From Lytechinus pictus (taxonomy: Eukaryota): a stretch of 64,000 nucleotides of DNA. Shown one piece after another: positions 2,641 through 64,000 of the stretch; position 1 is the stretch's first letter, and the number at the start of each line of letters is the position of its first letter. Position numbers and translations under genes: made by a program. The stretch spans positions 29,700,001-29,764,000 of the forward strand of contig NC_087245.1 of assembly GCF_037042905.1 (NCBI RefSeq), in the 5' to 3' direction. Under the pieces are notes generated by a model. That model ran no database searches. It saw only the letters and a list, made by a program, of their open reading frames with translations, and had not been told where the DNA came from.

Positions 2641-2817
2641 CTTTGCTTCGGGATGAGACCGGGTGACCCTGTTGTCTTTGGGGTTGTAAGGGGGAGGGAG
2701 GGTGATCCCGGCTCTACCCGCAGTTACCCCTCCCCCTCCGTGCGCCAAACGGCCGGGCATGAAGTCAGTTCCTGGCCCCTGCACGGGCTGTGCAAACACC
2801 CGCAACTTCTTACTCAT
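2641..2817 (-). CDS. Putative alternative first coding exon, 59 aa (MSKKLRVFAQPVQGPGTDFMPGRLAHGGGGVTAGRAGITLPPPYNPKDNRVTRSHPEAK), ends phase 0
   Basis: GC- and CpG-rich island in AT-rich intron; strong donor AAG|GTAAGT at 2640; in-frame stop just upstream of ATG 2817; possible acceptor tttacag at 2858. Confidence 0.65.
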
Positions 2818-5698
2818 TGCAACAGTTGTTTGCACGAAACATTGTCATTTCTGGCATCTGTAAAGTGTTTATTCTCAATGCCAATCACCAATTTCAAAAT
2901 CATCTTGCCGATGTCTCTTGACGGCCAATGTCATCATACATGACAAGGTAAAGGACATCAAAATGTAGTATTAAAGGTTAATTTCCATCTAATTAATTAG
3001 GAGTTCTTGTCATGTGACGTGACCTTCATCCATGGATGAATGGAATATTTGATGAAATATCCATGAAGCCTAATTAATTCTTTCAACTTCAAATCAATGA
3101 TGACCCTATAAAAATGTATATCCTTGTCAGAAATCCCAAGGTCTTAGAAAATGCAGTGCAGGTTATTGATTGAACATGACTAATGTATCATTGTGATTGA
3201 GACAAATCAAAGTCCTCTCAGAGGGACAGAAACAAATTACACCGTGATCAATGTCACAACCCCAATCCAGTGATATTCAGTTGAAACTCTAATAGGAATA
3301 AATCAATTCCATTTGATATCTAGAGATTTGATGAATGCTCCATCGTATAGCTAAAATGTCCACTTTCCTTAACCCGAAGGTCAACAGATTATTTTTTTTT
3401 TCAATCCAAAATATGAAAGCTCTTTCATACTCCCCAGAAAACTATATCCTGAAAAATAACTTGTTCCTGGAATCATCAAGTCATGGTTGAGTTGAGATGA
3501 AAACAATTTTCGTTTCCAAAATAGCACTGCTTTAAAAATCACAGCTTCGATGAAAACACTAATGAATCCATCACTTGATCATCTGACGAGATATATGGCA
3601 CACATGGAGGAGCTGAGGAAAATGATACTTCCATCCAATTCATTAGCCAGCAGATCAGGGAGAAAGAGACCGCGAGGGAAGGTGTACGGACTGTCAGTGA
3701 AGCATGCAAGCGGACTGTATCGCAGTGGACTCGGAGCATTGATCACGGCCTGGTGAATGAATGGTTGGATTGAAGTCCATGAATGGGGGAGGGATGGGTG
3801 AATTGTCTCCCAGTCCTGGCACGCACTTTGTGGATGTGAATGGATGCCGTGAATGCAGCCAGGCTTAGCAGCCCATCTCATTGGTTGAGTGAGCTCAAGC
3901 CAAAGCTTTCTTTCTTCCCTCCGCTTTAATAGGTCGTCATCAGCAACCAGATAGTTTACAGGAGCTTAGTCTATTCAAGTCAGGCTTTGTATTTCCACAT
4001 GCCATGGTCAGTGGGAGGGATAAGGTAGCAAATTGGGAAAATAGCTATTACAAGGATTGCTGGTTCTGCTCTCTCTCTCTCTCTGAGAACCCAAATCCTC
4101 TACCTAGTTCAAGAATCAGTTGCAGAAATTTACAAATACAGTACAACATAAGTTACAAACATATCAATAAAAAACACAATGGGTCAGAATCCAAAACTGA
4201 AATATCAGATCAAAAAAATAACTCTCATGTCATTTTTTTTTTAGTTTTGTTTTCTGCTTAGATCCCCAAAGCATTTAAAATATCTTGACATGTAATGCTA
4301 TCTCTCTCCTTTCTCTCTCTTGATAAGTTCATCCACTTATTTTTGTTCCTCAGTCATTTTATGATGTAGCAAAGTGATTATTCAAAAAATACAACAGCTC
4401 TGATATCCCAAGGAATATACAAAATCATACATTCGATTTCACAAAATCACCTTCCCAGAAAGTCACAATACCATATCATAAAGCACCTAGCTGCATCGGC
4501 AGTGCTTCATTTACCAGCCATTTTTCATCCTCTTAAGCTGAGTTCTGAGAATACAAGAGTCATATATTGTTGATGACGTCATACGCAATGCAAACCAACC
4601 ATTGCATCCTTTACGTTCATTGTCCTCCCCTTTACACGTAATTCCAGAGAATAATACAGGACTCATTAATGACCTTCTTGTTTGTTAATCTCTTGCCTAT
4701 TCAAGTTAATAATTAGTGCAAGGATGTGGACCACTTTTGTAAGCTTATGATCATCATGATTATGGCACTGCCCACAAATTCAGTTAAAAGCTTGAGAATT
4801 CATATCAGTACTCACTGGTTTTACAGCACATGTTAAAATGTCAAAGTATATGAATTTTATAATCAAATTCATTCACTCATTTCTCCACCTAGCTACCACT
4901 GCATTATTATTATTTGAAACTGAAAATAATTCCATGAAATACAAAAAAGGATTGTGACCATTTTGTACCTGTTAGGCATCCAACCTTCAAACAAATCATA
5001 ATCACAACCAGTATAAATTATTTTATTTTCAGGGGCTACTTTTCGCATTCTACTCTGTAAATCTGCAACATTGGATAAGCTTTAACTTTGCAGTAAATTG
5101 GGATTTTCCAGGGCTCTTATGAGCCCCCATGTTATTTTTCCCTGACCACTATGCAAGAGAAATATACATCATGAGTGACCCTTTCATACTCCTTCTACAG
5201 TAACCACCATCACCAACAAAAAATATTGATTTTTCGCACATACAACCAGCCCACCCATTTTCCAATCATAATCGCCATTACCCACACAGAATTAACTGTC
5301 CATGTAATGCTACATGTAACAGAACACCAACAATGTGGTACCCATGTGATAAAAAAATGCTGCCTTTCTGGTTTTTAGGGTGATGTAAAATTAAAAGTGG
5401 ATTACTGTGAGTCATTGACATTGGAGCCCACTGTTTCTAGTGAAAAAGAAACAAAAGAGGACATAAGAAGATTTATGAGGAATCCATTGATTTCTTTGCT
5501 TGGGTTGGTGTATTGATCCAGAACAACAGGTTGGATAAAAGATCTTGCATTCAGTGTCTTTTAGTTCACAAAAGTGGCAGACTAATCAATAAAGACCAAT
5601 ATGTGGACATGGTCAGAGATCCTGCTTAGCCTGACACTTAAGACTGTATAAGGACGAGCACTTGAAAGTCAAGATGAGTGACAGAGATAGAGAGGATA

Positions 5699-5931
5699 CA
5701 CTGTATAAAGGAGGATGGTATTAAGCTGACACCAGTTGGTGTCCCTACAGGACCAAACCCTGAGGTGTTAAAATTACACCAAAGAGTTTGAACAGAACTA
5801 AAAACCATGCAAAAGAAACAACCAAAAGTGTTGTAATCAAACACCAAAGAGAAGGGTGTCAAAATAACACCAGAGTAAAATGATTGGTGTGCTGTTCTTT
5901 GTACACCAGTTGGCACTACATTTTTGCTGTG
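5699..5931 (+). mobile_element. CACTG-type MITE, family H2
   Basis: Starts ta|cactgta, ends tttttgctgtg|ta; same core as 2486 and 15196. Confidence 0.7.
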
Positions 5932-7054
5932 TAACAGGGAATTTAGAAATGGAAAATGAGCAGCCTGTGGAGTTCTTCATGGAAACATGATAATCATGAT
6001 TTTGGCATATGACAGGAAGTCATTCAATCATAGGCAGAAGTTTATATCTTTATATCTTATAACTTGAGTCTGCATAGAAAGACTAGAAAAGGGGTGTTGT
6101 CCACAGCCTTCACTCATACTCACTGAAAAAAGAAGAAGACACAAATGATGTAAACATAGGAAACTGTGAAAACTGATGGATGCGACAAAACCATACCTGA
6201 CACTTCTTTTATCTAACACCCTGGTACATTAGTATACATACTATTAAGTCATCAAAAATTTTACAAAGTTCCTTGTTCCTTTTTTTTCTGGTATTAAAAA
6301 ACATTCCAAATTCAACAGGATATTTCTCATGAAGATAGTGAACTTTACTTGGTAAAGCTTCAGGTTGAATCTCATAACAAATACCATTGATGTATTCTGG
6401 TAAATTAAAGTAGAAAAAAATCATATACAATGATCCAATAATCTCTCTAATTAATTTAATCATTAAGTTAAACAATGTTCTAAATACGTTGTAATCATTT
6501 GAAATGTCCAAAATCACATGTATTTCAGTAATCCCAAAGCTAAAACATTTCAACTCCACTGTACGCTTGTTCTCCCCCCCCCTCCCCCACATACATGTAC
6601 CTCAATCTTTGCAAATCTGCTCTGAAAAAGAGTCTATTCTTGATCCATTATCAAATGGCCTTAATTGCCCTCTTCTTCAGCGTGCCCACACATTTATTAT
6701 TTCCTGCATTCAGTCTATCTCTTGCCATTGATTTATAATTATATGCTATTAAAAGGTAATAAATAAGATCACCACTTTCCCCCATGCAAGCTATTCATAG
6801 AGCTGCTGGAGGGAGCTGGATGGAGCTGAAGATTGAAATGGTGATATAAAGGTCATATAATTCTTTTCATTTCTATTTTAAAGATTACCTGAAATTCACA
6901 TCTTCTTCATTTGTATCAAGAAGATCTGTTGCTGATGCTAATGAAAAAGCAATCCATTCTGAAAATGCAATTCTACAGTACAGTAGTAATTACAAATCAA
7001 TTGAATGCAACAGGAATCTCAATCATATTAAAATCTATGGCATCATGGTACTGG

Positions 7055-7599
7055 CCCGGGGGGGGGGGGGGGCACTCGACCAAAAAAGTGGTAGGGGTGT
7101 GCCGCGGGCGAGGCAAAAAACGGGGGCCTTGGAGCGGGCTTATTGTAAAAAGGAGGGTCCTCGGAACGGGCTTCGGAACTACAAATGTTTGTGAAAACGG
7201 GGGTCCTCGGAACGGATCTCCGTATCTCTGTGAGTGCGTATGCATCCCTATGGAACGGGCAATCGTGCATGACGCAGCTAGCACGGCCTGGTGCGCTCGC
7301 GCTTAGGCGATGGTCGAAAAGCGCTCTACGGCCGCTTTTCACCAAAATTGTAGCAGATCAATGCGACCGGAACGGCGTAACGAAAAATATGCGAAGCTAA
7401 TTTGGAGCGGATTTCTTTCTTCTTTTTTCTCGATAAGAAGGAAATGCTATGCCTTGGAGCGGCTTTCTTTGTTCTTTTTCTCAATAAGACAAAAATGCTA
7501 TGCCTTGGAACGGAAATTTGAGTGTAAAAATGGGGGTCCCCTCCGCGGCACATACCCACTATGCATTATATACTGAGTGCCCCCCCCCCCCCCCCCGGG
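7055..7599. mobile_element. Young non-autonomous DNA transposon with CCC(G)n-CACTC TIRs and 8-bp TSD
   Basis: TIRs CCCGGGG..GGCACTC and GAGTGCC..CCCGGG; exact direct repeat GGTACTGG at 7047-7054 and 7600-7607; CpG-rich interior. Confidence 0.85.
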
Positions 7600-10500
7600 G
7601 GTACTGGCCTACTCCCAGTTCGCACATGCATTGCACACATATAAGCTCAGTCATCCTGGCTTAAAAAATGTGTTGGTGAAAATTCACTTGAACTTTTGCC
7701 GCAGTCACTGCATTTTCTGTTTGCATTTTGATTTGTGATTTACAATGCCATTGACCAATAAACCACTGCAGAATCACCCCCCCCCCCCCCTCTTTCGCAT
7801 AAAAATACCTGTGGTATAAACCACCCAAACAATGAATTTCTTCCTAAATCATCGCAAAAACATTCAATTAAATTTTCCTTTTATAAGTCCCCAAAACAAG
7901 CTGCAATATTTCACAACTCAGATTTACGAGCTCTCTGCAGGAGGCAGCAAGCCCCTCAAGTTCAACCCCGGTTGACCCCCCTAAAAAATGTGGGCCATCT
8001 TGACAACATACTTGACATTAGGTCTACCAAGGTGACTGGTACCATACATCATGGAATCGCAACCACATGTGTCCCATACCTCATTCTTGAGGTGTGATAG
8101 CAAGGATTTTTCCTCCCATATGTTCCAAAAAAGGAAAGGAAAATGCTTTGAGACAAAGTTCTCTCCTTCCCCAATAATGCCCAGTGATATATCAAAACCT
8201 ATATGGTAACCCCCCCCCCATCTTCCAGTGAATATCATTATAAATCCAAATGAAGGATATGAAATGAAAATGAGTTTTAAAATTTTCATTTAGTAATTTT
8301 TGCAATTCAACATGAACATACATATTGATTGGGTGCTTGATCAAAATAAAGTATCCTGATTTTTTTTAATTATTATTATAACCAATCACTCAATGGATTT
8401 GAAAGACATGTATTGCAGACGATTTCCAGAGTAAAATAAAAATCATTACTGAGAAAGGGCCGCAAATAATCCCTAACAAAATTTTCACAAATAATCAATG
8501 GTTGAAAAAAAAAGGTTTAACTGACACTACATTTTTTGTAAGATTGGAATCATACTCAGAGTATAATTCAAATTATTGACCTTTTTACCAATTGCATCTG
8601 GCAGGCTTTTCAAACAATCTTTTAATCCTTTTCTTCTTAAATACCACAGGTTCACTTGGGAGGAGTATTCAAATATTCAAGAATGAGGAAAGAGTTGTCA
8701 TCAACTCATCATGTTCCCAGAACATTTTGATTTCTTTAAAGCTTTTAGTACAAGGGTGGGTGTCATTAAACACCAGGAATACTCACAAATCTTGGTACAG
8801 TTTACAAAGATCTTTCTAAAACAACTGAATATATGAAAATCCAACAAGAAGAGTGCAAGCATGTTCAAGTATTCAAATATCGTGGGAAATTCCAATTTCA
8901 AAACACATTTCAAGCGAAGAGTTCATGGGTTAAAACTCTGTACTACACAGTACAAACACAATACTGATACACTCTTTTAACACTATTCCAAATGAGAATG
9001 AAAGGGTTAAGAAGTGCTGCCCTGCCACCACCCCCCCCTGAAAGGGCCTTATATAGGGCGCGTGTGACAATCCAGGGGGTTAAGGAACGCAGCTGGAAAG
9101 ATTTTGTGGTTAAAGTCATGTTTTCCATCTTAAGAGCATTCTATTTAAATCTCAGCTTGAAAAAGCTACATAATTGAACGACTAGACAGTCCAAAAACAT
9201 TCATATTTCATTCAAAAAGCATGATGTAGCTGAATTTTATCACTTTCAAAGAAATGTGAAAATTATTTTGAATTGTACAGGCTGCTGTTAAATATTGGTA
9301 CAATTTTTTTTCTCAGTTTCATGCATAGATTGTTGATTTATGATGTTCCACGGTCTACTTTCAATATTGCTGTACGAATGGTTACAATCATAATGATATA
9401 GATTTTCAATTCAATTTCTAATGTTTAGCGACATACGTTAAAAGTCTTTGTGAAGTTTTGATAATTATCAAAATATTGGACTAAAATGATTACATTCAAT
9501 TCTTATAAATGACAATTGGAACAGTTTGCTTTTTGATGGGGTTTTTTTGCAATTTTTTTTTAATTTGACCATTAAATCAGTGATCTATTAATATTAATCT
9601 GACAATTTGCTTTATAATAAAGACCCTATGGAGATGTTTCTTTTATCAGGCGTAATCATTTGAGATAAGAAAATAATGAGAAAAAATTATCGGAATCCGG
9701 TTAGCCAATTTGTACACTTGGTTTAATAGACAATTTTGTAAACTCCACCTATTTTGATTTCACATCAAATCTTATAACACAACTTTCATGAAATGGTATA
9801 ATCTGACATTGATTTTTAACTCTGGGTTTACCAAAATCGATATGGGCCCTAACTCATACACATTATTAAAGACATTAATGGCCTCATAAGACGAAAGAAA
9901 ACAACATTGCAGTATAGTATGTGATAAAACCTTGACATTCAACAGAATTCAAACACACCTTCAATATATATCATGGCCATTACTAACACCTGTTTCATAG
10001 CATTGCAGGGGTCTATATTGCATGTTACACCTCATAATTTTCCAGGCTGTCACAAATTATGTCTAAAGCTAAAACACCATGATGAGTTTAACAAGACACA
10101 TGGGTCTATGGTGCGGGTGCTTCAGAGGGAAATAAAAAATGTTATGAGATAATGGCTTTACACAAATTTTGTGCTTAGAAACACGGTACCTGAATCATGA
10201 TACAATGCAAAGGGTTTTTTTTATTATTATTTCCCATAACCTATTCATAAAATCTTTTTATTGAAATTCAAGCAATTGAAATATCAATTGATTTAATTCT
10301 GATGCTAAATATTCTTAATGCTTATTATTAAGGGTGGTCATCTCGACAACCCCATCTGGGTTCTTATGTGCTATTGTGTTTTTATCTATATACTGTATTT
10401 TAAAGTATACTATAAGATTGCAACTGTCATGGCAATTGTAATCTTATTCTTTACATGTACATTGTGAATTGTTCCATTTTACTCCAGTTTTTATGCAATT

Positions 10501-10980: not shown

Positions 10981-11031
10981 CGCAGTCTTTCGGATAGCAG
11001 CCACGGAATACCATACCTTCGTGTCAAATTG
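10981..11031 (-). CDS. Putative 51-nt symmetric phase 0/0 exon QFDTKVWYSVAAIRKTA, with an internal donor giving a 15-nt micro-exon QFDTK (11017-11031)
   Basis: Acceptor gctgctttgtttag at 11032; donors GCG|GTATAT (10980) and AAG|GTATGG (11016); open frame; CpGs retained in a CpG-poor intron. Confidence 0.5.
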
Positions 11032-14103: not shown

Positions 14104-14215
14104 ATGACGATGGAGATGGTGTGATGTTGGTATTGATGATGGTGGCAGTGGCGGTGGCGACGACGATGGCTACTACTACTACTACTGTACTACTGCTATT
14201 ACTATTATTATTGCT
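14104..14215. repeat. Mixed trinucleotide low-complexity tract
   Basis: gat/ggt/ggc/tac/tta runs. Confidence 0.7.
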
Positions 14216-20781: not shown

Positions 20782-20868
20782 CTCGATTCCCGTGGATTTA
20801 TTCTTAGGCTTTTTGAAAATAATAGCATGATCCATTCTACATAAACTTGAATTCCTCCTAATATACAT
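20782..20868 (-). CDS. Putative alternative first coding exon MYIRRNSSLCRMDHAIIFKKPKNKSTGIE (or starting at Met 20835), ends phase 0
   Basis: Strong donor GAG|GTGAGT at 20781; open frame back to a TAA near 20915; possible acceptor gttgttccag at 20901; local CpG retention. Confidence 0.45.
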
Positions 20869-22577
20869 TCCAAATGATCGACTAAAATCGTACCACCACT
20901 CTGGAACAACCAATTAATGTAATGATGGTGAGATAGGTCTTTACATTGTCCGTATTCTCAGATAAGATGATAAGCTGCAAGTGTACAAATGATGCCATAA
21001 AAATAATCTTGGCGTGGCTCATAAAACTAACTCCATCCAGACTCCTTTAGTATAACCTTCGATGGTGGAATTCACATGGTTTCTAGGTCTACTGATATAA
21101 TCTCGATCAAAGAAGGAAGTCATGTTCTTCAATTAATCTCCATTTGTTCTCAGGAAGTAAGCATGCCAATTCATGTAATCATGATCTGACTAGCTGACAA
21201 TTTTGCAAACACCAAAGATATTCAAAAGATGAAGAAATATACATGAAAATCCTATTACCCAAACGTAAGATAGACACTGCTTCTATATCAATCAAATGTT
21301 ATCACTGTTCCTCAGCCAGTTCTCATCGTCTAGAAGGATCTATATTTAAAATCTACATGCAGAATGGCTTCCAAACAACTAACAGGGAGAGGAACAATCA
21401 AGAGTGAAAAAATCAGCAAATTTAACTCTGGTTCTTGAGTTTTACGACTGGTCCTTTTGTGTCTGTGCATCTAGTGATTCAACAAATTACCCCAAAACAA
21501 AACTGCATTTTCCAGAATGAGAGAATGAAGATGAAAGCAGTGGTTTACCTGGTGCAGACTGCCACTATTATTGGGTGTAGAGTGATATATCAACTTCATA
21601 AAATTAATATGCAATTACATATAAGAAAAAATAACTTTGTAAATGAATCTTATATGATCAACTTTTGCCTGGATATTCCAAATATGGAAGTATAGCAGAG
21701 AAGTGGTTGTGATTCTCAGAGAGAATTTTTGCAAGTTCGAAGTCACCAATAAATTTGTTGATTATTGTACACTTTACTTGACAAGGGCAAAGAAATAATT
21801 GCATAATAATGATATTTCAATTTTAATATCACATTCCATTTTAAGGCTGGAAACTATTGAATTTATATCACATAATAATGGGGAAGGTGTTTGCATACGA
21901 CATCACACATTAAAAAAAAAATTAAACAAAAAATCACAACCCTCTGTTTATTTTTTTGACAGAGTTTTATCATTTTCAATCTGTAATTTTGCTGCTTTTA
22001 TTATTCTCTGAAACCTTTTAAAACAATACACTAATATTGTTATATCATGTGCTGCTGTATATTAAGGCCACTGAAGGGAAACAGAAAATTGGCTACTGGA
22101 GACACATGACCTTTATAGACAGGTTCTTTTAACACTTACCTTTCAAATGGGAGACATGTTTAGTGGCCACTAAGGAAAGGTTTTTTTTTTGCTATAGACA
22201 GGTGACCAATGAGACAGTTTTGATTATATCCTACATGAATTAAATTAGAGCATCATGCGACCAAACACATTCTCACTATTTTGTGATGATGTTGAAAATG
22301 AAACGGCCACTGAAGAAACTATTCCATAATGTCAATGATGCAATCTCTCTGGCGCACCGGTCAGCGAGGTGTCTCTATACTGGGCAAGTCCCGTGAAGAG
22401 ACGTTGCAGGCACAAATCCACCTTCCGCTGAGCGCGTGGCTTCAGGAAAAGTAGGTCAGTCAGCGCAGCGCGTTATCTATATTTTGGTTCAGATTTAAAA
22501 AGGAGGAACTACATGTACAAGAACTATATTATTATAAAGATCTGCTATTCTAACTTATTTAATGTAGGATAAAAATA

Positions 22578-23611: not shown

Positions 23612-23857
23612 CATTATCATCATTATTTTCACCACCTCCTCCACCACCATCATTATGACCATCACCATCATCATCATCACCATCACCATCATCATCATCA
23701 TCATCATCAACATCATCATCATCATCACCACCACCACAACCATCATCATTACCAACACATCATACTAATTATGACCATCATCACCACTATCATCACTATC
23801 ACCACCACCACTACCACCACCACCACCACTATCATCATCATCATAATCGCCATCATT

Positions 23858-23889
<32 letters not shown>

Positions 23890-23890
23890 C
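23612..23890. repeat. (CAT/CAC)n trinucleotide microsatellite
   Basis: About 280 bp of cat/cac triplets; explains the poly-His and poly-Asp ORFs. Confidence 0.95.
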
Positions 23891-29447: not shown

Positions 29448-29532
29448 CTTATTCTTGGTCTGTGGAGGGGCATGTAGAGGTTTGATCATAGGAAGCATAG
29501 TCCGATAAGGGTCCCTCCTCTCAGAACCAGAC
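29448..29532 (-). CDS. Internal coding exon, 85 nt, phase 2 to 0: (x)SGSERRDPYRTMLPMIKPLHAPPQTKNK
   Basis: Acceptor ttttcttcaatgtttttgctgtctgtag at 29533; donor AAG|GTAGGC at 29447; only one open frame, and it fits both upstream phase-2 exons. Confidence 0.7.
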
Positions 29533-30856: not shown

Positions 30857-31750
30857 GGGCCGTCTGCACCATCCCGAAGTTTCAAATTAGCGCGCTATTT
30901 CTGATCCGGCAAATTATCCCGATCTGAAAAATCTCGAGATAGTTGGCGGTGCAGACGCAATTATCGCGCTAGTTCGTAGGATTAATCTCGAGATTGCAAT
31001 CCCAAGTCAACTCGGGTTTATTTGCAAAATAGCGCGCTATTTTACGAATTATCCCGCTAATTCGTCGGTGCAGACGCACTCGAGATTGGACTCGGGGTAA
31101 TTTATTCATGACGTCAGTCCATAATGCAATTCGCGTTGTTCCACTTCCGCCTTGGTCAAAACATAAACACGTGCGAAAGTCAACTTTATACATGCGAATA
31201 GCGTTCATAAGCAACGATGGTGTCCCCACCAGTGAATGGATTTTGGGAGAGACCCCGGGAGAGACCAGACCGAAGGGGGAGGCGCTCATCGCATCGACGA
31301 TGGTCATATTCAATAACAACACTGACAGCAGTGTTGTCTTATTCCTTCGCAAAATGTGAGCAAATAGCATTTCTTTCCTCCTTCTCCCTCTCTCTCTCTC
31401 TGTCGTTGCCTCCTACTCCGCCATCATATTTCACGAAGAATACATCACTTCTTCACTCGCTGAGCTGAAAGGATTGTTGCATAACACCGGTTGAATTCGG
31501 CGAAAGTACTAGTGAAAGGAGTTCATTGCTTGCATATCGCGGGAAGTTATTCAAAAGCGCGGGCCGTTGAAACTCCAATATCCGAAAGTGCGCATGCCCG
31601 GAATATCGGGCTTGTTGCCTCGCTCGAGCAGATATAGCTCCTCGTGGGATGGTGCAGACGGGGTTTCTTGAATCTCGAGATTAATCGCGAAGAGGGCTGA
31701 TCGGGCTAAAATCTCGAGATTGAGCAAACTCGGGATGGTGCAGCACCGCC
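30857..31750. mobile_element. PIF/Harbinger-like non-autonomous element
   Basis: TIRs GGGCCGTCTGCACCATCCCGA and TCGGGATGGTGCAGCACCGCC; repeated ggtgcagacg and aatctcgagat subterminal motifs; CpG-rich; ta/tta flanks. Confidence 0.75.
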
Positions 31751-35423: not shown

Positions 35424-36015
35424 TTAAAGGACAAGTCCACCCAAACAAATAGTTGATTGGAATATAAAGAGAAATATCAAACAAGCATAACACAGAAAAT
35501 ATCATCAAAATCAGTCGTAAAATAAGGAAGTTATGACATTTTAAAATTTTGCTTAATTTCACAAAAGAGTTATATGCACATCCTGGTAAAAATGCAAATA
35601 AGGGGACTGATGACATCATCCACTCACTATTTTTCGTATTTTACTATAAGAAATATTCTATTTTTTCCCCATTGTCCTGTAAAACAAAGTTTATTCCTCC
35701 CTGAACGTTTGGAATTATCACTGTTTTAACATTTTGTGGTTCAGTCAAGTTGGTCCTTGTTGTCAAATCTAAATTGAAATATTGCATAATTCAATCAATA
35801 AAAAACAAAAGAAATAATGAGGGACATCGTTGACCCTCTTATTTGCATATCCTTGAGTTGTACATATAACTGTTTTGTGAAAAATAAGCTTAACTTCAAA
35901 ATATCATAACCTTCTTACTTTACATCCAATTTTGATGAAATTTTCAGCATTATGCTTCTTGATTTTTCTCTAATGATTCAGATCAACATATTTCTGGGGT
36001 GGAATTGACCTTCAA
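35424..36015 (+). mobile_element. Family A MITE (Kolobok/T2-like)
   Basis: TTAA|AGGACAAGTCCACCC ... GGGGTGGAATTGACCT|TCAA. Confidence 0.9.
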
Positions 36016-36135
36016 GTGTGACTTTGAGTCATGTAACATGCAACCTTATTGATTAATATGCAGGAGCATGCATCCTCTTCGGCATGATTTGAATGCAGTG
36101 AAGTCTTTATACCACACAAACCTGGGAATTTAATA

Positions 36136-40500: not shown

Positions 40501-41572
40501 CACTGGAGCAAAGGAGAGGACAGGCTGTGCAATTGTGGAATAAATACATAATTGATGTAATTTGACAATTTCAAATTCTATGCATGTGCTCTACTAGAGT
40601 TACATGTATAAATAATTTTTGGAAAACATACATTTCAATGCAGACCTCCAAACATTTCTGATTGAACAATAAGGAAGATTTTGCTTGTAAAGTTAGTAAA
40701 AAAATGTTTTTGTATAAATGTGCATAGTAATTTGTTTTGTTTTTTAATAGGAAAGTCTTATCTTTAGAAACAATAGCTCATAATTATAAAAGTTCAGATT
40801 CCTTACGGTAAGTTCAGAAAGGTTGTGAAACTTTTGATGTCTACATGTAAATGCAATGAAAAAGAATTTGAGTTTCTGAAAAGCCTATATGTGCTTTTGA
40901 AAAAAAGCACATTCATTATTACATATTCATTCAAGGATTATAAATGATGACATTAATATGTCAATGAAACATGCATATTTGTGAGCTAGACTAAATACTG
41001 GTCATGATGTACAAAAAAGATCTCTCTACATACATGAATTCATAAAATTGACTTTTCTATTTTCATGGGTATTATGAAAGACCCCATGGAGAGCAGAACA
41101 TGAAGTTGATTCGTAATACAGTATTCATGACTGTGGCATGCATCAACATAAATATTGTCAAGAATTATGAATGACATACATGTAGTGGTACATGTAGTAT
41201 TGAAATGATGCCTTTATTCATCAGTCTCCAGACTGTTTTAATGAGGAATAAACCGAAATTAATCTGAATGGTAGTATTTCACTAATCATATCATATATTT
41301 CAGACATACAATCAGAGATGCCACCCTTCTTCAACAAAAAATTTTCTTAGAAGGAAAAAAATATATTTTAAGGGATTAAAAAAAAATTCCCTCACTGTAA
41401 TGATTGCCAGTCTATCGATGTCAGATGGCCCATCAAAAAGATGTGGTACAGTCACTGTATTTGGTCACTGTAAAGGATTGTGCAGGTCTTGAACGAAGCA
41501 TACATTTGCAGGTGCTGCTGCTTCATCTAAGAAAAGAAGGTCATGCATAAACTACGGCACATGATCAGAAAT

Positions 41573-42163
41573 TTATAGGACAACTCCATCCTAACAAAAA
41601 GTTGATTTTAATAAAAAGAGAAAAATCAAACAATCAAAACACTGAAAATTTCATCAAAATCGGATGTAAACTAAGAAAGTTATTACATTTTAAAGTTTCA
41701 CTTAATTTCACAAAATAGTATCCTGGTTGGTATGCAAATGGAGAGACTGATGACGTCATCCACTCACTATTTCTTTTGTATTTTATTATATGAAATATTC
41801 TTTTTTTTCTCCTCAGTGTCAAGTGAAACAACAATTAATTCCTCCCTGAGCATGTGGAATTACCATTGTTTAATACTACATGGTTCAGTCAAGTTGGCCT
41901 ATTTCTCAGATCTGTAAAAAAGGAAATAACGTATAATTCAAACAATAAAAAACAAAACAAATATTGAGTGACGGACATCATTGTCTCATTTGCATGTCAC
42001 TGAGTTGTGCATATCACTGTTTTGTGAAAAATAAGCGAAACATTGAAATGTCAAAACTTTCTTATTTTACATCCGATTTTAATGAAATTTTCAGCATTAT
42101 GCCAGTTTGATTTTTCTTTATTTATCAAAATCCACATTTTTCTGGGGTGGACTTGACCTTTAA
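41573..42163 (+). mobile_element. Family A MITE (Kolobok/T2-like)
   Basis: ttat|aggacaactccatcc ... ggggtggacttgacct|ttaa. Confidence 0.9.
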
Positions 42164-42339
42164 ACAGAAAAGCTATTAATCTGGTAAGATGAGAGGTGAT
42201 GACTTTTTACCTGATTGCTAAGACAGTATGAATGCTCGTAAACAAGCAACCAGATGACTGAAGGTATAAAGTCCTCTCCAAGGGGCCTGGTAATGGGAAT
42301 ACACACCTTTAATACCAAAGGGCACTGGAACACTCGTTA

Positions 42340-42812: not shown

Positions 42813-44941
42813 TATTGGGAACTGAATCCGAAACCCCCTCCCTATATACCCACTGAGCTTTAACACATCCTTTGGCATTATAGCTCAGTCAGCAGTGGGG
42901 CTAAAGCCTTTTTTTTGACCCCTTATCGCAGGAACCTACATGTACAAAGTAATCACTGCCAATCAGAGCATCAAAGGAACATTTATGATAAATATCTGAT
43001 TGCCAAGTACACACAGACACTTGTGTATAATTATACTACTAGAAATGTTTCATTAATGATTAATGACACTTGATTTTCAATACATATATGTACAAGGCAC
43101 TTATCAAACTAAGAACAATGACTTAATAACACCTTCATATTATCATTAATTCATAAGCTTTTCACACCAATGATAACATTCTGCAGTATCATTCAAGAGT
43201 GAGCAGAAACTTCCTTGAGGTACCACAGAGTTACTTTTTTCTAATTAAAAAATCATGAAAAGATAGTAAACTTAAAAAATTATCTTGCTTCATCACGCAT
43301 CAATGAAAGTAAAATAGTGCATTAGGGAAAACGCTCAAAATATTTTTCATAGACCAGCTGCCATATCTCCCGGTTACTTCCTTTCCTTTTTCTATATTCA
43401 TTGAAATTCACCCACAAGCCTAAATTTTTTTGGTTTTATTTCAATTCTATTTCACAGAGCAGCATAAAACTCTTATAATTGTGGGCCTACATGATGCCTA
43501 TTAAGGATATTTGCCTCATATCAAAAGTTCTTTCAATTTGCTTTATAGGCTGCAAATATCTCCATTAGCTCAGGGAAACCCAAATTAAAGTTTTTTATCA
43601 AAAGCTAAATGTAAGTTTGAGTATATAAATCTAATTTTGATAGGAGTGGTTGGAATCAATCCTTCAGTTTATCACAAGCCAGAATGCTTCAATTAGAACA
43701 ACAAAGTTAGAATAATTTAGGCTTGCTTGATATTGTATTGATTTAATTTCCAATTTTCCATGCTTTTCCTGATGTAGTAAACACAAGAAACAACATGTGA
43801 GACCACACTATAAATGGCAACACTTTTTCAGTAATTTTTCTGATCTTCATTTGCTCATTACTCTGTAATTATAAATTTTCTAGAAGAATCATTTGACAGA
43901 TATTATTCATATATAGTTTTTGTAATTCTGTGTAAGTTTTGTTCAATTCTGTAAACATTTCATTTTCTATTGTTTATTTTTAAAGCCTTTTTGCATTTTT
44001 TTCCTTTATTGCAAACTTTCCACATACATGTATGGATGGGCTCCAGTTTAATGCATATAACTGTTTCACTGAAATAAAGCAGTTTATCAATGACAACAGT
44101 TAACAAAACTCCTTAATTTTTCATCTGATTTTGATAAAATAATATTATAGTATGAATGATTTAATATTTCATTTTTCCCCAGATTTAACAATAAGGAAAC
44201 TCTTCATTGAATTCCAATGGGTTAAAGTATGACAATCCACATACATGTCTATACAGAGACAAATCAAACTTTTTTTACATTACAATGAGGAAAAATAAAG
44301 AAGTCTAATAATTCTTTTTATGAAATATAAAAAAGAGTGAATGTGTGACATCGTCGCTTCCATTTGCATTCTGACCGGGATGCACTTAAAGTCTTTAAGT
44401 GAAATTAAGCCAAACTCTAAAATGTCACAACTTCTTATTTTACATCCAATTTTAATGTTTTCACCAAAATGCTAGTTTTAACCTTATTATTTGATCTGTT
44501 TAAAACAATTTTCTCCTTTTATTCCAATAAAGATTTAACAGTAGAAATTATTCTCATATCTTTATGACAACAGAAAAAAGGGTTCTTAGAGGGTTATAAA
44601 CTTGAAACATTTAAAGGTTCTCAAAAGCTTCTAAAATTAACTTAAACAGCCACTTTGGAACCTTTTAAGGTTCTTTATAAAATTATAAGGTTCTTGAGCA
44701 TTAAGAACCTTTCTGGGAACCCTTTTTCTTGAGGGTTCTAAATAAGGGACAAAAGGGTTTCAATTCACAACAGTGTTAAAGGCATAAAATTGTATCACTG
44801 GACATTCAATTTATAAAATCTTTTGCAAGCAATTATCGAGTGTATGATTATCAAATAATGAAATAAAATGAATGATTGAAACGACACCACTGGAAAGATG
44901 TTAACACCCATGATACAAGGAATATGTCAACATATTTGATA

Positions 44942-45107
44942 CACTGTAAAAAATGAAGTGCTAATTTAGCACTTACAGTGCTTGTATAGTGACTGCACTA
45001 CGAGTGCTGATTTTTTAGTTCAAATTTAAACTAAAAAATCAGCACTCGTAGTGCAGTCACTATACAAGCACTGTAAGTGCTGAATTAGCACTTTATTTTT
45101 TACAGTG
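44942..45107. mobile_element. Near-perfect palindromic CACTG (EnSpm-like) MITE, family H1, 2-bp TSD TA
   Basis: 166-bp fold-back cactgtaaaaaatgaagtgctaa...ttagcactttattttttacagtg; second copy at 62117. Confidence 0.9.
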
Positions 45108-45120
45108 TAGGATATCTTAC

Positions 45121-45206
45121 TTGGTCCTAAGGATGGTGAAAAGGAGGCGGCTTTGATTCTCAACTGGATCATCCTCATGGTTCAGATTTGACTGCTTTCC
45201 AGACAT
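45121..45206 (-). CDS. Putative alternative start-codon exon (exon 45121-45327): MSGKQSNLNHEDDPVENQSRLLFTILRT, ends phase 2
   Basis: Acceptor ttgcactatttcag at 45328; donor CAA|GTAAGA at 45120; ATG context CAAACAATG; phase fits exon 29448-29532. Confidence 0.5.
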
Positions 45207-45465: not shown

Positions 45466-46636
45466 CAAGTGGAATGCCTCTGGCGGTCTCACCTGCATCA
45501 CACGATTCAATATAGTAGCAGTGCTGACTTTGAAAACTACTATGATATAATTATTCACAAAAAACACCATTCATATAATGATACAATACTACGTTCATTG
45601 ATATTTGACCTTGATCATGTGACCTAAAACTTGTCAGTGATACTTGATTACCCCTATTTCCACATTTTATACATTATATCTATAAACTTTGAAAGTTATG
45701 ACAGCAATCTAATGATTATCTCTAAAATGACCTAAGTTCAATGAACTTAAATGACCTTTGACATTGGTCATGTGACCTAAAACTTTGACGGGATCTTGAT
45801 TACTCTTATGTCCAAGTTTCATGAATCAGATCCATAAACTTTCAAAGTTATGATGGTAATTCAACAAATACCCCCTACTTGGCCAAATTTCATTGACCTA
45901 ACATGACCTTTGACCTTGATCATGTGACCTGAAACTCACACAGGATGTTCAGTGACACTTGATTACACATGTACTCTCATGTCCAAGTTTCATGAATCAG
46001 ATCCATAAACTTTCGAAGTTATGATGGTAATTCAACAGATACCCCCATTATGGCGAAAGTTCATTGACCTTTGGCCTTGGTCATGTGACCTGAAATGCGC
46101 ATAGGATGTTCAGTGATATTTTATTATTCTTATGTCCAAGTTTTATGAACTAGACCAATAAAGTTTCAAAGTTATGATGGTAATTCAACAAATACCCCAA
46201 TTTGGCCAAAGTTCATTGACCCTAAATGACCTTTGACCTTGGTCATGTGACGCGAAACTCAGGCAGGATGTTCAGTAATACTTGATCAACCTTATGTCCA
46301 AGTTTTATGAACTAGGTCCATATATTTTCTAAGTTATGATGACATTTCAAAGACTTAACCTTAGGTTAAGATTTTGATGCTGATTCCCCCAACATGGTCT
46401 AAGTTCATTGACCCTAAATGACCTTTGACCTTGGTCGTGTGACCTGAAACTCAGGCAGGATGTTTAGTAATACTTGAGTAACCTTATGAACAAGTGTCAT
46501 GAACTAGGTCCATATACTTTCTAAGTTATGCTGTCATTTCAAAAACTTAACCTTTGGTTAAGATTTGGTGTTGACGCCGACGCCGCCGTCGGAAAAGCGG
46601 CGCCTAGATAGTCTCACTCTGCTATGCAGGTGAGAC
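45466..46636 (-). mobile_element. Helentron-associated non-autonomous element (HINE/DINE-1/pearl/Tsp architecture) with about 6 internal tandem units of about 150-190 bp
   Basis: Sub-terminal IRs gtctcacctgcat and atgcaggtgagac; short terminal hairpin; gcc/gac microsatellite; both ends in A/T runs; no TSD; second copy at 59557. Confidence 0.8.
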
Positions 46637-49600
46637 AAAAAAACCATCAGAGCGATTTCCAACATATTTCCAATCTCCACTTAACATGAACTTAATAGTT
46701 AAGTCTTTCCCATATCATCAGTACTGGTCATGAGACATAAACAATTTAGAAATCTAATATCTCCTGAAAAAGCTTTACTTCTCAAATGTTGAAGAATAAA
46801 ATTAGGGCAATCCAAAAATCTGATGAAATGCTCACGGGGGGCATGTGCAATGTAGAATCAATAATTGCAGAAAGCTCTCGTAAAAAATATGTAGAATCAA
46901 ACGCACGCCATCACAAAGTTTATTTTGAGAAGCCATAGACAAATGCATGAAACTACCATGTAGTTTCCATGTTTGATGCAACCATTGCAACTGAAGCAAT
47001 ACACACTCCGTTGATGAGCTCCCTCTTGCCACTAAACAAATCCTTGTCTAATCACCAGCTCTTGTTAATCATTTAATTAGAGTGAACAACCACCAATCGC
47101 AGAAATAGATGATAAACATGTAAATATATGGTCCAATCCAAGTATTGAGACAACACATATCAGAGATGGGAAGATATCATTTACATTGTAAGCTTTTCCG
47201 CAAACACTTGTTGTGTGATACCTTGAGACTTCAAACAAATTTTAACACTTTTTGTTTATCATCTGATATCCTTGACAATGGAAAAATATGTTCATGCACA
47301 TGACATACATTGTACATGTGTATGTTCTTTGCTTATCAATGATGAGGAATTATCATGGTACTTTAATCCTCATTCAAATTATACGATTGAATGATGTTTG
47401 AAAGCAAAAGCAAGTACTTGCAGTAGCCTGTACATGTAATCATGAATTTTGATTTGTCAAGGAGATTAAAGCCTGTATTTCAGTAGTTTGCTGTGCAAAC
47501 CCTTCACTTTTGGAAAATGGTCTGAACATGCAGCCCCTGGCAGTCCCTGCAGTCCCTGGCAGTGATTTGTGCACAGAAGGTCCCTAGACTTCTTCTTCTT
47601 CTGTCCTGTGGTATTAGCAACCAGTCAAAAAGTGACTATTTTAGAGGATGAAAAGCTTCTTTCCCTTCATCCTTTTTCTTCTATTTTACATTCTTTTTTC
47701 CCCTGCTCATCAGGTTTTTTTTTTCAGTTAATCATTCCTGTTTCTTTGTCTTTTTTTCTTTCTAGAAAGTTGTATTGTATTAGTCTTGTATCAAAACCCA
47801 CTTGTTCATCAAAGCTTCAATCAGAGTCTGTGCATGCAATTATTTCAATGATGGGAGCAAGGTCACTGTTCCCACTCTTTGAGATACGATGGGCTTTTAA
47901 CAGAAAAATAGTAGCTTATCAATTAATTAGAGAATCTCATTACTAAAGCACCTCTAATATGTCAATTAGGCAGCAAGCACAATTCATGTAACTCATCTTT
48001 GTCATTTTGGGGCATGATAATATTTATTTTTCAGAGGCATAATGAGCATTTATACTTGGTTTCCAGAAATCTAACATTAATATGAAAGGAGTATTGTATC
48101 TGGTTCATATGCCTAATAAGTATGCATGACTTTCATTTTCAGAATTCAGGCTCAAGTGAACGATTGTCTACAAAACAAAAATATTGAAGTGAAGTTTCGT
48201 TCATGGGTATTAATTGAACGCTGCCATCCGAAACATAATATAATGGTGTAAATCAAATATGAGTAAACATCAAATCTCATATGAAAATTTAGTGAGTGTA
48301 CATGTACGTTCTTTAGCATTCAAATATCAAATTAAGAACAGAAGTAAAAAGAATCAATGCATCAGTGCGAGTGTAATATGCTTTATGAAGAAAAAAAAAG
48401 AAAGAAAAGAGTTGTTTTCCCCACATTCACTGCCCCCCTATCTAATAACTGTTCTAGTCAATAAATGATTATTTTTATTATTTTATTTCTTTTTTGCTCT
48501 GATGAAAAAGTACAAAGATGCAATCATGGATCCTCAGTGGTAGGGCCCATGCAATATGTACTCACCTGGCAATACAAAAAACACCCCTCCCAATTACATG
48601 GGGGCTCAGGGTAATATTGCCCAAAAAATGCTAAAAAGAGCTTTTGAATTTTGTGTGAAGTCCCAATAAATCCCCACTCAATGCAATTTCAAAGCTTATC
48701 CAACACTGCATCTTGGCAATGTGTGAAAAGTAGCCCTTGAAAAAAAATCTGATTATTAATAACCCTTGAGACAATTACAGATAAGAAAATCTAATTTCTT
48801 TCGCAATTCCAATACATAAAGAATAGTGTAGCATATATCAACAATACATCCATCTATTATTAAAAGCATAATTGTTTGATAATGATAATCTAATCTTCAA
48901 TTGATATTAATGAGCTAATAATTCTGGGTAATTAACCCAATTAATAGGTTGTTCGATTAGCTTATTGATAATTTATCACTTCCTCAAAATACATATTAGC
49001 TTTCAGAATTCTAAAGGTGATAATTAAATGGTACTTGACAACACCAATATATTTACACTGCAATCAATTGATTTCATCAACAAATTAATAAAATTTGATG
49101 CATCTACAGGAAGCTATAAAAAACAAATTAAATTTATCTACAGTATGTGTATAGGAAAATAACATTTGGACCTTGCATAACTTCAGTTTCAAAAAGAAGA
49201 ACCACACAAAAATTTTCCAAAAATTATGTGTGTTTGAATAATATTGCATGCCAAAACTACAAAATCAAGAGTTCTTGTTGAAAATGATTCTACTTTAATA
49301 TGCATTATCCTCTGGGAGCAGCCCTGGACAGATCTTATTTTTCAAAGACTGGCCATCATCTTGTGTATCAACTGTCTCCCATCCACAGAAGCTAATAAGC
49401 ATTATTTCTCAAATCAATCTTTTTTGTTTCATGTTACCTCTAAATCCTAGAACATTTATCTAACAAAAAATAATAATGCCTCAATCTGCTGAGTGACAGG
49501 TACTGTGAGATCAATATTCATAGACAGACTGCTGTACCTGTTCCCCCACATATCTCTATTGTCATGATGAAACATTATTTTCTTCTCAGGCATATTGGGA

Positions 49601-50159: not shown

Positions 50160-51379
50160 ATGTTACTAAACTGGGTTCCAAAAGAAACTTATCAAACTTC
50201 ACAAGCGCACTACAAACACTCCACTCACTCAAAATGAACAAAATTTTGACGCAAGCTTACTTCAATAATCTTTCACTAAGCACATGGCAATAATTAAAGA
50301 TTGGTTTAATATCAGAGGCTGTAGCCCCTCAAATCGATTGGTTCAGGAATCCAAAGTCACAAAATGTCAAAAGAAAGACCAATGAAAATGAGATGGGATT
50401 AAACAAATTTTCAAGTTTATAAAAGTTCACAGTATGACCATCAGCATGTTTAATTGATTGCCTCAATAAATAAGAAGTTACAGGAAGTTAAAGGTCAAAG
50501 TCCACCCCAGAAAATTGTTGATTTGATTGGATAGAGAAAAATCAAACAAGCATAACGCTGAAAATTTCATCAAAATCGGATGTAAAACAAGAAAGTGATT
50601 AAATTTTCAAGTTTCACTTATTTTTCACAAAACAGTTATATTCAGAACTCAGTGATATGCAAATGAGAGAGTCAATGATGTCCCTCACTCACTATTTCTT
50701 TTGTTTTTATTGTTTGAATTATATATTTCAATTTTTACAGATTTGACAATAAGGACCAACTTGACTTATCCATAAACTATTAAAATAATGATAATTCTGT
50801 ATGCTCCAGGAGAAATACAATTTTTTTTCACATGACAATGAGGAGAAAATTAGAACTTTTTACATTAAAAAAAATAAAATACAAAAGAAATGGTGAGTGG
50901 GTAACGTCATCAGTCTGCTCATTTGCATACCAACCAAGATGTGCATATAGTTGTTTTCTTATCCGATTTTGATTAAATTTTCAGTGTTATGCTTGTCATA
51001 TATCTCTCCTTTTATTCAATTCAATTTTTTGTTAGGGTGGACTTGTCCTTTAAAATTCACATTTTATACTCACCTATTGAGGTAAAAAAAAAGCATAATG
51101 CATGAATGGACTCAATCATGTCAATAGCAGTCAAGCAAAGAATGACCGTTTGGTTGAGACTAAAACTAAGAATTTGTGACTTTGGATTCCGGAACAAATT
51201 AATTTTAGGGGCGACAGCCTCTTTATTATTAAACCTAATTATAAAACCAATCTCTCAATTATTGACATGTGCTTTATTATATTGAAGCTAGCCTGTGTCA
51301 AAATTTTGTTCATTTTGACTGAGTGGAATTGCGCTTGTGAAGTTTGATAAGTTTCTTTTGGAGCCCAGTTTATTAATAC
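50160..51379. mobile_element. Old fold-back element with about 200-bp imperfect arms, containing a nested family A MITE
   Basis: 50160-50365 (taaactgggttccaaaagaaacttatcaaacttcacaagcgca...gaatccaaagtcacaaa) is the reverse complement of about 51172-51379. Confidence 0.75.
50488..51053 (-). mobile_element. Family A MITE, reverse orientation
   Basis: TTAA|AGGTCAAAGTCCACCCCAG ... GGGTGGACTTGTCCT|TTAA. Confidence 0.9.
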
Positions 51380-51380
51380 T

Positions 51381-51984
51381 TTAAGGTCAAGTCCACCCCA
51401 GAAAAATGTTGATTTGAATAAATGGAGAAAAATCAACTAGGATAATGCTGAACATTTCATCAAAATCGGATGTAAAATGATGACATTTTATAGAGTTTTG
51501 CTTATTTAAAAAAAAACACTATGTACAACTCAGTGACGTGCAAATGAGACAGTGGATGATGTCCCTCACTCACTATTTCTTTTGTTTTTTATTGTTTGAA
51601 TTACAATATTTCATTTTTTAAAGATTTGACAATAAGGACCAACTTGACTTCATACAATAAGGACCAACTAACTCCACATGTTCAGGGAGGAATTAATCGT
51701 TGTTTCACTTGACAATGAGGAGAAAATTAGAATATTTCAAATTTTATATACGGTATTATAATAAAATACAAAAGAAATAGTGAGCGGATGACGTCATCAG
51801 TCTCCTCATTTGCATACTGACCAGGATGTGCATATTACTGTATTGTGAAATTGAGCGAAACTTTAAAATGTCATAACTTTCTTATTTTACATCCGATCTT
51901 GATGAAATTTTCAGTGATTAGGCTTGTTGGATTTTTCTCTTTTTATCCAAATCAACATTTTGTTGGGATGGACTTGTCCTTTTA
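51381..51984 (-). mobile_element. Family A MITE, reverse orientation
   Basis: ttaaggtcaagtccaccccag ... gggatggacttgtccttttata. Confidence 0.9.
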
Positions 51985-54449
51985 TAGTTTGCAAAGTGGT
52001 CATTAAATCAATGATTTTCAGCTTATAAAAAGTATGATGTACATGTAGTTTGTTGTGCAAAGTTGCAAACACTTCACAGGGAATTTTTCTGAATTAACAT
52101 GCAGCCTAAAGTCCTTGGAGTGGTGGTGACTTGTGTGTAGAAGGTTCCTCTCAAAAAGAGAAACTTGTATTTTGTGCCAGTCTTGTGCGAAGACCCACTT
52201 GGTGATCAAAGTTTCAATCAGGGTCTGTGCCTGCAGACAAGGTATGATCCACAGTCTGAAGCTTGTCCCAGGGTTTCGAGAGATAAACGCTAAACAAATA
52301 CTTCAAAGCAAACCACTCCAATGTATTGAGCTTTAGACCTGAATGTAAACATGTTTCAACAGGATTTACTGATTCTGAAGTTCAACTGCATGGGCACTTG
52401 TATAAAAATATTGTATCAACTCAAGTACATGTACTTATCATTCTCATGATGTCCAAGCCAGATTTGAAATCATAGGGTACTTGGGGGAAATTCCCACAGG
52501 AAAATTCACTCAATCCCTCTAACTTGACCTATAGATGGGACAAGTCAACCTACTCAAAAATCAATTCTCTGCCGTATTACTACTTGTTCAGGGCTTACTA
52601 CATCTAGATATCTGATTTCCCTCTAATGCTTTATGCTACATACATATTAGTTTGAGCAGGGACATCCCTGGTTTGAGGCACCTTTTCAAAAGGTTCATCT
52701 TTCAATAATTCTCAGTCATTCACCTAACTTAACAAGGGGGAGGGGGGGTTAAGGTGTAGCTTTACTTTTTGCACCAAACATAAGTTAACAAGGAATTTTC
52801 TTGGAGAAAATTCCTTATTATGGTGACTTCTAATATGATTTAACATTCATATTAGTTATTTTGCCACTTTCATAAATGTCTCATTCCTCCCTTCTCTCTC
52901 GCTCCATCTCTCTCTATCTTTCTTTTTCTCTCAGTCTCCCTTCAGTGCCAGTGCCTTTCTGATTATTTCACACTAAACAAAACTTCTGCCCTCTTAAGCA
53001 TCTTCTATGCACAACTTTTTTTTCCCTCTCCTTGATGGTTCACATTCCCCCCCCCCCCCCCGTTATTTCTCTAAATTCCAACAGAAGACATTTTGATTTT
53101 GAGGACGGATCACTCCTCTCCAAAATCTTGGGAGACATCTACCCCACACAGCCAAACTCTGACCCAGATGTCATCAGCTATCAAAAACAACAAATTTTGT
53201 TTCAATACAACTGGCTTGTTCTATACATCATGACCCATGTTACAGGTGAAGTTGTATTCATGAGATCACAACTTGTTGTATCATTTCATACTGCATATCA
53301 AATCAAACTATTGTAAATCCACATTAAAATCATCTATGAAATATCAGCTTTCCTAAAAAGTTAACCAATTTTGAACTGATTCTAATTTATAAAAAAAAAC
53401 TGCATATACATACATATACAATTAGTATGTGAATGCATTGCATTATCTCATTAAAATATGAAAAATTTCAAGCTCCTTAAAATGATTTTTACTCACACAC
53501 TTCATACATACGTATTGTTGAAAAAACCCTGTAGCCTGTATCAAACCATTAGAATTCAGACAAAATGAAGAGTCATACATGTACATACATGTAGTATGGA
53601 TTTGATCTATCAGTATCAAGCAATATAATATTCCAGATAAAGAACTTTATTGCAATAATGTATGAGCTCAGTGATTCATAAACTGAGCTTGCAATATTTT
53701 GAAATAAATAGCAATAGGGTACAATGTACCGTTACCACTATAAAAGTGCTACAACTTCATTTACGGTTCAAATTTTTTCCTCATGTACATTATATGTAGG
53801 CCCTATGTTATTGTAAAACCCATTCAAATTGAGAGGGTCATGGTATCATTAACTAGTGATTCAATAACCTATAAAAAGAAAACATTTGTGTAGAAAAAAA
53901 TGATTTCGAAACCATATTCAATTCTAGGACGACAAGTGTTTCTAAAATGTTTTCTAAAAACATATTCACAGTAGCATGTTGATCCCCTATTCCTAATGCA
54001 ACATGTTTTCTAAAATTAATAATTTTTTAGGTTATCAACCAAGAGTTGGAAACTGAAGATTTTAGCTTAAGTCTAAGTTACTTGTAAAAAAAAAGAGACA
54101 AGGGGGAAAAAGGGGGTATCTATCATCTATCATCTCAATGTTCAATGTTACTTTCTTAAAATCTTTGTACAAAAAATATTTATAGATTATAGGTCTAGGT
54201 CCAAAGCTATTATAGTCTAGGGCAAGCATAGGAATATGATATTACAACTGATATTGAGATAGGTTCCTACATGTATAAAACCAAGGCAAATGCACAAACC
54301 TGAAATGAAGGTGAGATGTAATTTCAAATAATCAGTAAAAAATGGAAATGGCATGAAATAAATTATTTTGAAATCTTGTTAACTTAAAAACCAACCAAAA
54401 ACAAAGCCAAAACAAGGTAGATCTGAAGTAAAACCTAAGTAATACTTAC

Positions 54450-54490
54450 TCCTTGCCCCCAAACAGATGGTGATGATGGTAGCTGCTCAT
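54450..54490 (-). CDS. First coding segment MSSYHHHHLFGGK(E), ends phase 2, within exon 54450-54694
   Basis: Acceptor ctttttctttcag at 54695; donor GGA|GTAAGT at 54449; GA+G joins in frame to exon 29448-29532. Confidence 0.6.
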
Positions 54491-54694
54491 AATGTATCCT
54501 TTCTCCTAATCCATGATCACCTCCAAGTTGGCAATTAATTATTTGTAAGGTATCCTGATCATGGCATTGTTACTATGTTGGCTTGAAAAGTTGTATTATC
54601 ACGATGCAAATAGTATCAAATTGTGTTTAACTGTCACTAAATTTGTAAGTTAATCTGGCCGAGTAAAATCATGTGTCAGTTTTAACATCTGTTG
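54491..54694 (-). other. 5' UTR part of exon 2 with five short uORFs
   Basis: Minus-strand ATGs at 54688, 54672, 54567, 54562 and 54514, each closed by a stop before 54490. Confidence 0.55.
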
Positions 54695-54999
54695 CTGAAA
54701 GAAAAAGCCAAAGGATACCAAAGCCAAAGAGTGATGTATGAAGCTGAAGTCTAGCAAAAGTAACTTATTTCTGAGTATTAACTGTAGTGTTATACTCTAA
54801 TTTGTGACTGTCTCTGTCATCTGACACTGTCAGGAACAGTGACAGAACCGTCCATGGGCATAGCATAGGCAAAAGCCCAACCTCAGTCCTTATAGCTTCA
54901 TCAATGTAGGAGGCACGAATAAAAAAAAATCATAAGTTCAGAATACAAAATCAAACACGGAAAACAACACAACAGGAACAGGAGAATTAGTCAGTGTCA

Positions 55000-55460
55000 T
55001 TAATAACTCAAGTGGAACAAATCTGAATGAAAATTATATGAACGGTTGGTTAGCACGCGAGTCAGACAGAGCAACGCTTCCTTGACAACGAGGCCCCCGG
55101 TCTCTTCCCGCGGTGGCTGAGTCTGTCGTCGAATGGTTGTCAGCCGCTGAACTCGGTATCCATTCATGTAGGCCTAATTAAAAGTAAACCAAACTGCTGA
55201 ACATCTCAATGCACTTACATTACGAGTTCGTCGTCGTCGTCGTCACGGTCCAAAAACTCCTCAAATAATTAATGTCGTAAACTCTTGACATTTCAGATAT
55301 TTGGCGACAATCTAAATACGACGAACAAAAAGGAGGACACGCATCAGTTTGGCGATTCCTATTGATTATCGATAACGGATGCGCGATGCTCTGCTGATGA
55401 TATCGCTGTGTTTCTCTCCTTTTACATGTTTTAGGAGTTTAGCTGAGAGCCCAGCCCAGG
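55000..55460 (-). promoter_or_regulatory. CpG-rich promoter / TSS region of the minus-strand gene
   Basis: Abrupt CpG enrichment in non-repeat sequence around the first donor, at the edge of the CpG-depleted domain. Confidence 0.55.
55219..55400 (-). other. Putative non-coding first exon (5' end approximate)
   Basis: Donor AAT|GTAAGT at 55218; CpG-rich with (GAC)n; a 524-nt intron to the acceptor at 54695. Confidence 0.55.
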
Positions 55461-63974: not shown

Positions 63975-64000
63975 TTTAGTTACGGACTGACTGAAATTTG

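Follow-up and report, generated by a model that had tools for sequence, protein, structure and literature searches.

The stretch considered here, a window of 64,000 nucleotides from the sea urchin Lytechinus pictus (RefSeq assembly GCF_037042905.1, contig NC_087245.1, positions 29,700,001 to 29,764,000 of the forward strand), is identified by sequence comparison as the front part of a gene for DYRK4, a class II DYRK kinase, on the minus strand. The window is repeat-rich, has a GC content of 31-41% and gave no Rfam matches over its 64 kb. The gene head itself had already been spotted in a preliminary description; the name DYRK4 is added here. Six coding segments had been proposed, labelled A to F below in minus-strand order, and all six show the minus-strand coordinates, open frames, GT/AG ends and phases that were claimed for them. 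Orthology places three of the six (A, C and F) beyond chance. In a comparison with 186 proteins, 17 of which are sea-urchin-type DYRK4 sequences, these three matched named kinase isoforms with E values of 1e-9 to 1e-52, and their order, strand and phase fit. Splice sites were scored with generic metazoan frequencies and no trained model, and ranks were taken among the 3441 GT and 3437 AG sites on the minus strand of the window. The plus strand, scanned for equally good look-alike frames, served as chance control.

Exon F (2641-2817, minus strand, 177 nt) encodes 59 codons starting with MSKKLRV, ends in phase 0 and probably represents the coding part of a proximal first exon. Its donor ranks 4 of 3441. 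The peptide is 95% identical over 58 amino acids (aa) to the start of isoform X1 of Strongylocentrotus purpuratus DYRK4 (XP_030830805.1), and 68% identical to Diadema antillarum XP_071489393.1. Compared with longer proteins in a search of 5.8 billion proteins, the 59 residues matched one protein among 34 candidates. This is a kinase of 764 aa; its source, a contig of 3370 nt, encodes F plus the kinase body, and identity is 95% over 98% of F (E 4.7e-28). In an unnamed 75-aa product F is read on into the intron. Its sequence diverges from the spliced form immediately behind the final lysine, and this fixes the phase-0 donor of F.

The 764-aa orthologue (P0001) carries a Pfam Pkinase domain at residues 246-542. 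Among solved structures, those of DYRK2 and DYRK3 are closest to it and align from residue 171 onwards, with the NAPA region included; the alignment to DYRK1A begins only at about residue 223. A NAPA region N-terminal of the DH box, the trait of class II DYRKs, was recognized in the orthologue by its alignment to NAPA-containing DYRK2 crystal constructs. DYRK proteins are described as having a CMGC kinase domain with a DH box ahead of it and a YxY motif in the activation loop (PMC3677093). A DH-box-like stretch at 209 and a YxY at 386 lie in the orthologue P0006, not in the window, and were read off the alignment using motif patterns. The cluster of the 764-aa kinase has 11 members. Two are the X1 and X2 isoforms of S. 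purpuratus DYRK4 in RefSeq, six are RefSeq models of an older style, and the other three are products of unnamed contigs. Seven of the 10 top clusters in a 50%-representative search are named DYRK4, one is a mosquito DYRK2 and two are without a family name. Insect Dyrk2 has been termed the human DYRK4 orthologue (PMC10952393). In a ciliary-proteome preprint, the urchin DYRK2, taken as XP_030856015.1 from the accession list, is a separate record (10.1101/2020.08.31.275511). With DYRK4 proteins as nearest relatives and a separate urchin DYRK2 gene, the locus is assigned to the DYRK4 subfamily rather than to DYRK2/3, on the basis of automatic names and similarity. The first 20 residues of the body gave nothing above background in the window (best score 29 of 102). 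The body is therefore placed left of position 1, where by comparison with the orthologue isoforms it is entered in phase 0, in line with the shared body postulated earlier.

The distal isoforms of the gene are represented by exons A and C. Exon C (29448-29532, minus strand, 85 nt) follows an AG acceptor, is read from its second base and ends in phase 0. It corresponds to the second coding exon common to the distal isoforms, which is entered in phase 2 and left in phase 0, and its peptide is 82-96% identical over 28 aa to the orthologue isoforms. The acceptor ranks 92 of 3437 and the donor 14 of 3441. An internal Met in C serves as start in one orthologue model. The coding part of exon A (54450-54490, minus strand, 41 nt) opens with MSSYHHHH, stays open to a GT and ends in phase 2. 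Twelve of its 13 residues match XP_011672634.1 (92%), and the peptide also occurs in Diadema and in an unnamed contig. A joined to C forms the start of a 746-aa isoform, and the same join is found in Diadema. It also occurs in an unnamed contig of 999 nt, which holds A, C and body in one frame. Since 24.9 kb separate A from C in the window, this contig is most likely spliced RNA from a related species. In the relatives, identical body residues follow directly on C in some isoforms and on F in others, as expected of mutually exclusive 5' exons in a multi-promoter gene, and both exons end in phase 0 in the window. The isoforms of the orthologues thus agree with the earlier proposal of one long minus-strand gene with several alternative N-termini.

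The MSSY exon had been described as a start exon, which is probably wrong. An acceptor at 54694, 204 nt upstream of the ATG of A, ranks second of the 3437 minus-strand AG sites, with a second AG at 54688. This strong acceptor makes A a likely internal cassette rather than a first exon. In the simplest reading, the full exon (54450..54694, minus strand) is likely a 245-nt cassette between C and a distal exon, N0. N0 (55219..55400, minus strand, 5' end approximate) is the likely first exon of a distal promoter. The bin 55001-55500 has an observed/expected CpG ratio of 1.28, the highest of the eight CpG-rich bins listed. The donor of N0 at 55219 ranks 35 of 3441, and the exon ends in AT before gtaagt. 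Followed by the G with which exon C opens (29532), this AT would give an ATG in frame with the exon C peptide, so that an N0-to-C junction would build a start codon across the splice site. A Met directly ahead of the exon C peptide is present in Diadema isoform X2 (XP_072175396.1). In the earlier description exon C had been placed correctly, and the start codon that would form across 55219/29532 had been overlooked.

A putative upstream open reading frame (uORF) of 23 codons lies in N0 (55220..55291, minus strand). The last base of its TAA is the A of the split start codon. A splice-built translation switch conserved among euechinoids could be imagined, in which the distal start codon is present only after N0 has been spliced to C, the split ATG overlaps the uORF stop and terminating ribosomes reinitiate there, and inclusion of cassette A abolishes this start and gives the His-tract N-terminus; such a switch is regarded as unlikely. 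If it existed, a single splice choice would decide at once which N-terminus is made and how translation begins. The combination of a split start codon and an overlapping uORF stop is the one curious detail of the locus, and unproven. Among the papers listed in a literature search of limited coverage, none treated urchin DYRK4 isoforms or a junction-split start codon in a DYRK.

With considerable confidence, the window exons are seen as matching DYRK4 isoform N-termini in a gene that likely uses at least two promoters and one cassette, swapping short N-termini onto a shared body. A distal CpG-rich promoter at about 55400 would yield the non-coding exon N0. Joined straight to C, N0 would give a Met+C start with its ATG across the junction; the order N0-A-C-body would give the His-tract start. 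Exon F and an F-body transcript would come from a proximal promoter some 52 kb downstream. Both C and F would lead into one and the same body exon, in phase 0, and B and D may supply further starts. The point of exchange precedes the NAPA/DH/kinase block by more than 100 residues (F reaches residue 60, the DYRK2 alignment starts at 171), and catalysis would for this reason stay unchanged. Activation by NAPA-assisted tyrosine autophosphorylation (PMC3677093) would be common to all isoforms. The N-termini probably influence where the kinase is located, its partners or its stability, or may just follow tissue-specific promoters. Strongylocentrotus-like and Diadema urchins separated roughly 200 million years ago. 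The A+C and F N-termini have been kept between them, which argues against pure noise and suggests that they have a function despite their distance from the catalytic block.

Several points weigh against this reading. Every join was taken from relatives, mostly from automatic gene models, and the kinase body is outside the window, its linkage resting on orthology. A Met directly before the exon C peptide occurs in none of the 10 full-length S. purpuratus-type models, and in only one of the five Diadema models is the Met+C start present. Two short N-termini of the older models (P0004 and P0005) are without counterpart in the window, with best scores of 27 of 63 and 25 of 61. Either first exons are gained and lost from species to species, or some of the models are wrong. 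Finally, the strong acceptor upstream of A is compatible with A having a promoter of its own.

In the least unlikely of the rival readings, the locus would again be DYRK4, A would be a genuine first exon under a promoter of its own, and N0 would be a separate non-coding first exon, with translation from the internal Met of C or from further down. An older RefSeq-type model (P0007) does start at the internal Met of C and a Diadema model (P0014) inside the body. Automatic models take the first ATG, which is no proof of its use. The rank of the acceptor at 54694 speaks against this arrangement, as does the position of the sole CpG-rich bin near A, which is that of N0, 500-900 nt upstream. The residues from the split ATG to the internal Met are conserved, a further point against it, although the A-type isoforms alone could explain their conservation. 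On balance this arrangement is improbable, and a role of A as a cassette behind N0 is preferred.

Segments B, D and E have no counterparts among the proteins compared. B (45121-45206, minus strand, 86 nt) is a candidate start exon that begins with MSGKQ and is open to a GT in phase 2. Its donor ranks 50 of 3441 and its GC content is 45%. None of the 186 proteins matched it (best E 0.42). Three B-like frames from ATG to donor occur on the plus strand; on the minus strand B is the only one. D (20782-20868, minus strand, 87 nt), likewise a candidate start exon, is open to a GT in phase 0 and has a lysine-rich end. Its donor ranks second of 3441 and no D-like frame was found on the plus strand; the GC content of 32% is at background level. 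No match was obtained among the 186 proteins (best E 3.2). B may be a real start exon, with the balance tilting slightly against it, and D is graded alike, somewhat short of an even chance. Since relatives have N-termini without counterpart in the window, species-specific first exons are possible. Homologue searches with the N-terminal region of A+C+body returned two proteins near the length and one shorter, none with B, D or E. The sequences searched apparently lack L. pictus DYRK4, and the result is hence weak evidence against B and D. The lysine-rich end of D fits a short basic nuclear-localisation pattern. If D is real, this end would parallel the splice-dependent localisation of human DYRK4.

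The 51-nt segment E (10981-11031, minus strand) is open and had been proposed as a 0/0 cassette. Its donor ranks 510 of 3441 and its acceptor 754 of 3437. Frames of 0/0 phase with sites at least as good number 43 on the plus and 52 on the minus strand. E gave no match at E<=5 among the 186 proteins, and no insert is present at its place in any of the 16 body-containing urchin sequences. As a cassette exon, E was rejected as being at chance level, with look-alikes numerous and urchin sequences lacking it; that it is an exon at all seems quite improbable.

The complete model of the preliminary description, with A, B, D and F as four independent coding first exons under their own promoters and E as cassette, is hard to maintain and rated as highly improbable. 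All phases fit it, the donor of D is the second-best of the strand, and relatives have further short N-termini not common between species, which makes species-specific B and D plausible. It is contradicted by the chance level of E, the three plus-strand look-alikes of B, the lack of any match to B, D and E among the 186 proteins and the strong acceptor upstream of A. Of its start exons, the A-C and F N-termini were recovered in orthologues, and B and D were not. A last reading takes the segments for chance open frames bounded by GT/AG motifs within introns or intergenic DNA. It probably applies to E and may apply to B and D, but is refuted for A, C and F by the kinase-isoform matches and the E value of F, so that as a general explanation it is very improbable.

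Other features of the window include further splice sites and repeats. Upstream of B, a strong minus-strand donor is located at 45493, 287 nt from the ATG, and the donor at 48566 is the best of the 3441; both possibly mark 5' untranslated exons. A good acceptor was not found between 45493 and B. A near-perfect palindrome of 170 nt (44940-45109) starts 12 nt past the donor of B. It resembles a miniature inverted-repeat transposable element and has a 93% copy at 62116-62212. A CG-rich patch at 22140-22500 (minus strand) is followed by a near-consensus donor at 22140, its score tied with that of F. The patch might represent a further non-coding first exon, located 1.3 kb upstream of D. Two Diadema records start inside the body, as would fit non-coding first exons.

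The CpG-rich element at 30860-31743 has perfect terminal inverted repeats of 16 nt (30860-30875/31646-31661) and a further arm at 31730-31743, and is likely a non-autonomous DNA transposon. The 147-codon frame inside it (30972-31412) was considered as a further start exon and rejected as spurious, being within the terminal-inverted-repeat element and without a donor at its end. One tandem repeat family with units of 152-192 nt forms two arrays (45604-46566 and 59783-60810). A dispersed family with inverted ends has at least five copies (352-980, 35424-36024, 41568-42171, 50487-51991, 63843-63982). A CAT microsatellite of about 81 units (23642-23890) is the source of false His-tract matches.

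Alternative N-termini are already present in RefSeq for two other urchin genera. S. purpuratus DYRK4 is represented by XP_030830805.1 (X1), XP_030830806.1 (X2) and the older models XP_011672634-38.1, which were assigned to this species from their near-identical bodies. Six different N-termini precede a common body in the 10 full-length members of the S. purpuratus-type cluster. They are F, A+C, the part of C that begins at the internal Met, a single Met, and the two short peptides mentioned above. The F, A+C and internal-Met N-termini of S. purpuratus have counterparts in the window, with exon ends that fit phase-0 entry into one body. S. purpuratus differs in lacking B and D, in having no model with a junction-split start and in two N-termini that are not in the window. 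Diadema DYRK4-like proteins (XP_071500473.1, XP_071489393.1, XP_072175395-98.1) include a cluster of five with four starts. Three of these are A+C, Met+C and F, and the fourth lies within the body. The A+C and F starts are shared with the window, and Met+C would be the product of an N0-to-C junction here. Diadema is more divergent from the window, with 68% identity in F and 82% in C. Outside sea urchins, no N-terminal match occurred among the best 150 of the 50%-representative search.

Alternative promoters are ordinary for the DYRK family. A review describes DYRK expression as regulated by alternative promoters that yield different 5' untranslated and N-terminal regions (PMC7465136). DYRK4 is referred to as the least studied DYRK, and the localisation of the human protein is reported to depend on the splice variant (PMC5831797). 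Human DYRK2 is reported in forms of 601 and 528 aa through inclusion of exon 2, with 73 extra N-terminal residues (PMC7658070). The gain of the present analysis is mainly one of annotation: it names a gene head that open reading frame tracks miss. The human class II enzymes differ from urchin DYRK4 in that, among the 186 proteins, those from outside the urchins gave no match to the N-terminal peptides of the urchin gene. As far as tested, it is hence a strategy and not a set of exons that is shared, human DYRK4 and DYRK2 following the same N-terminus-swapping strategy as the urchin gene.

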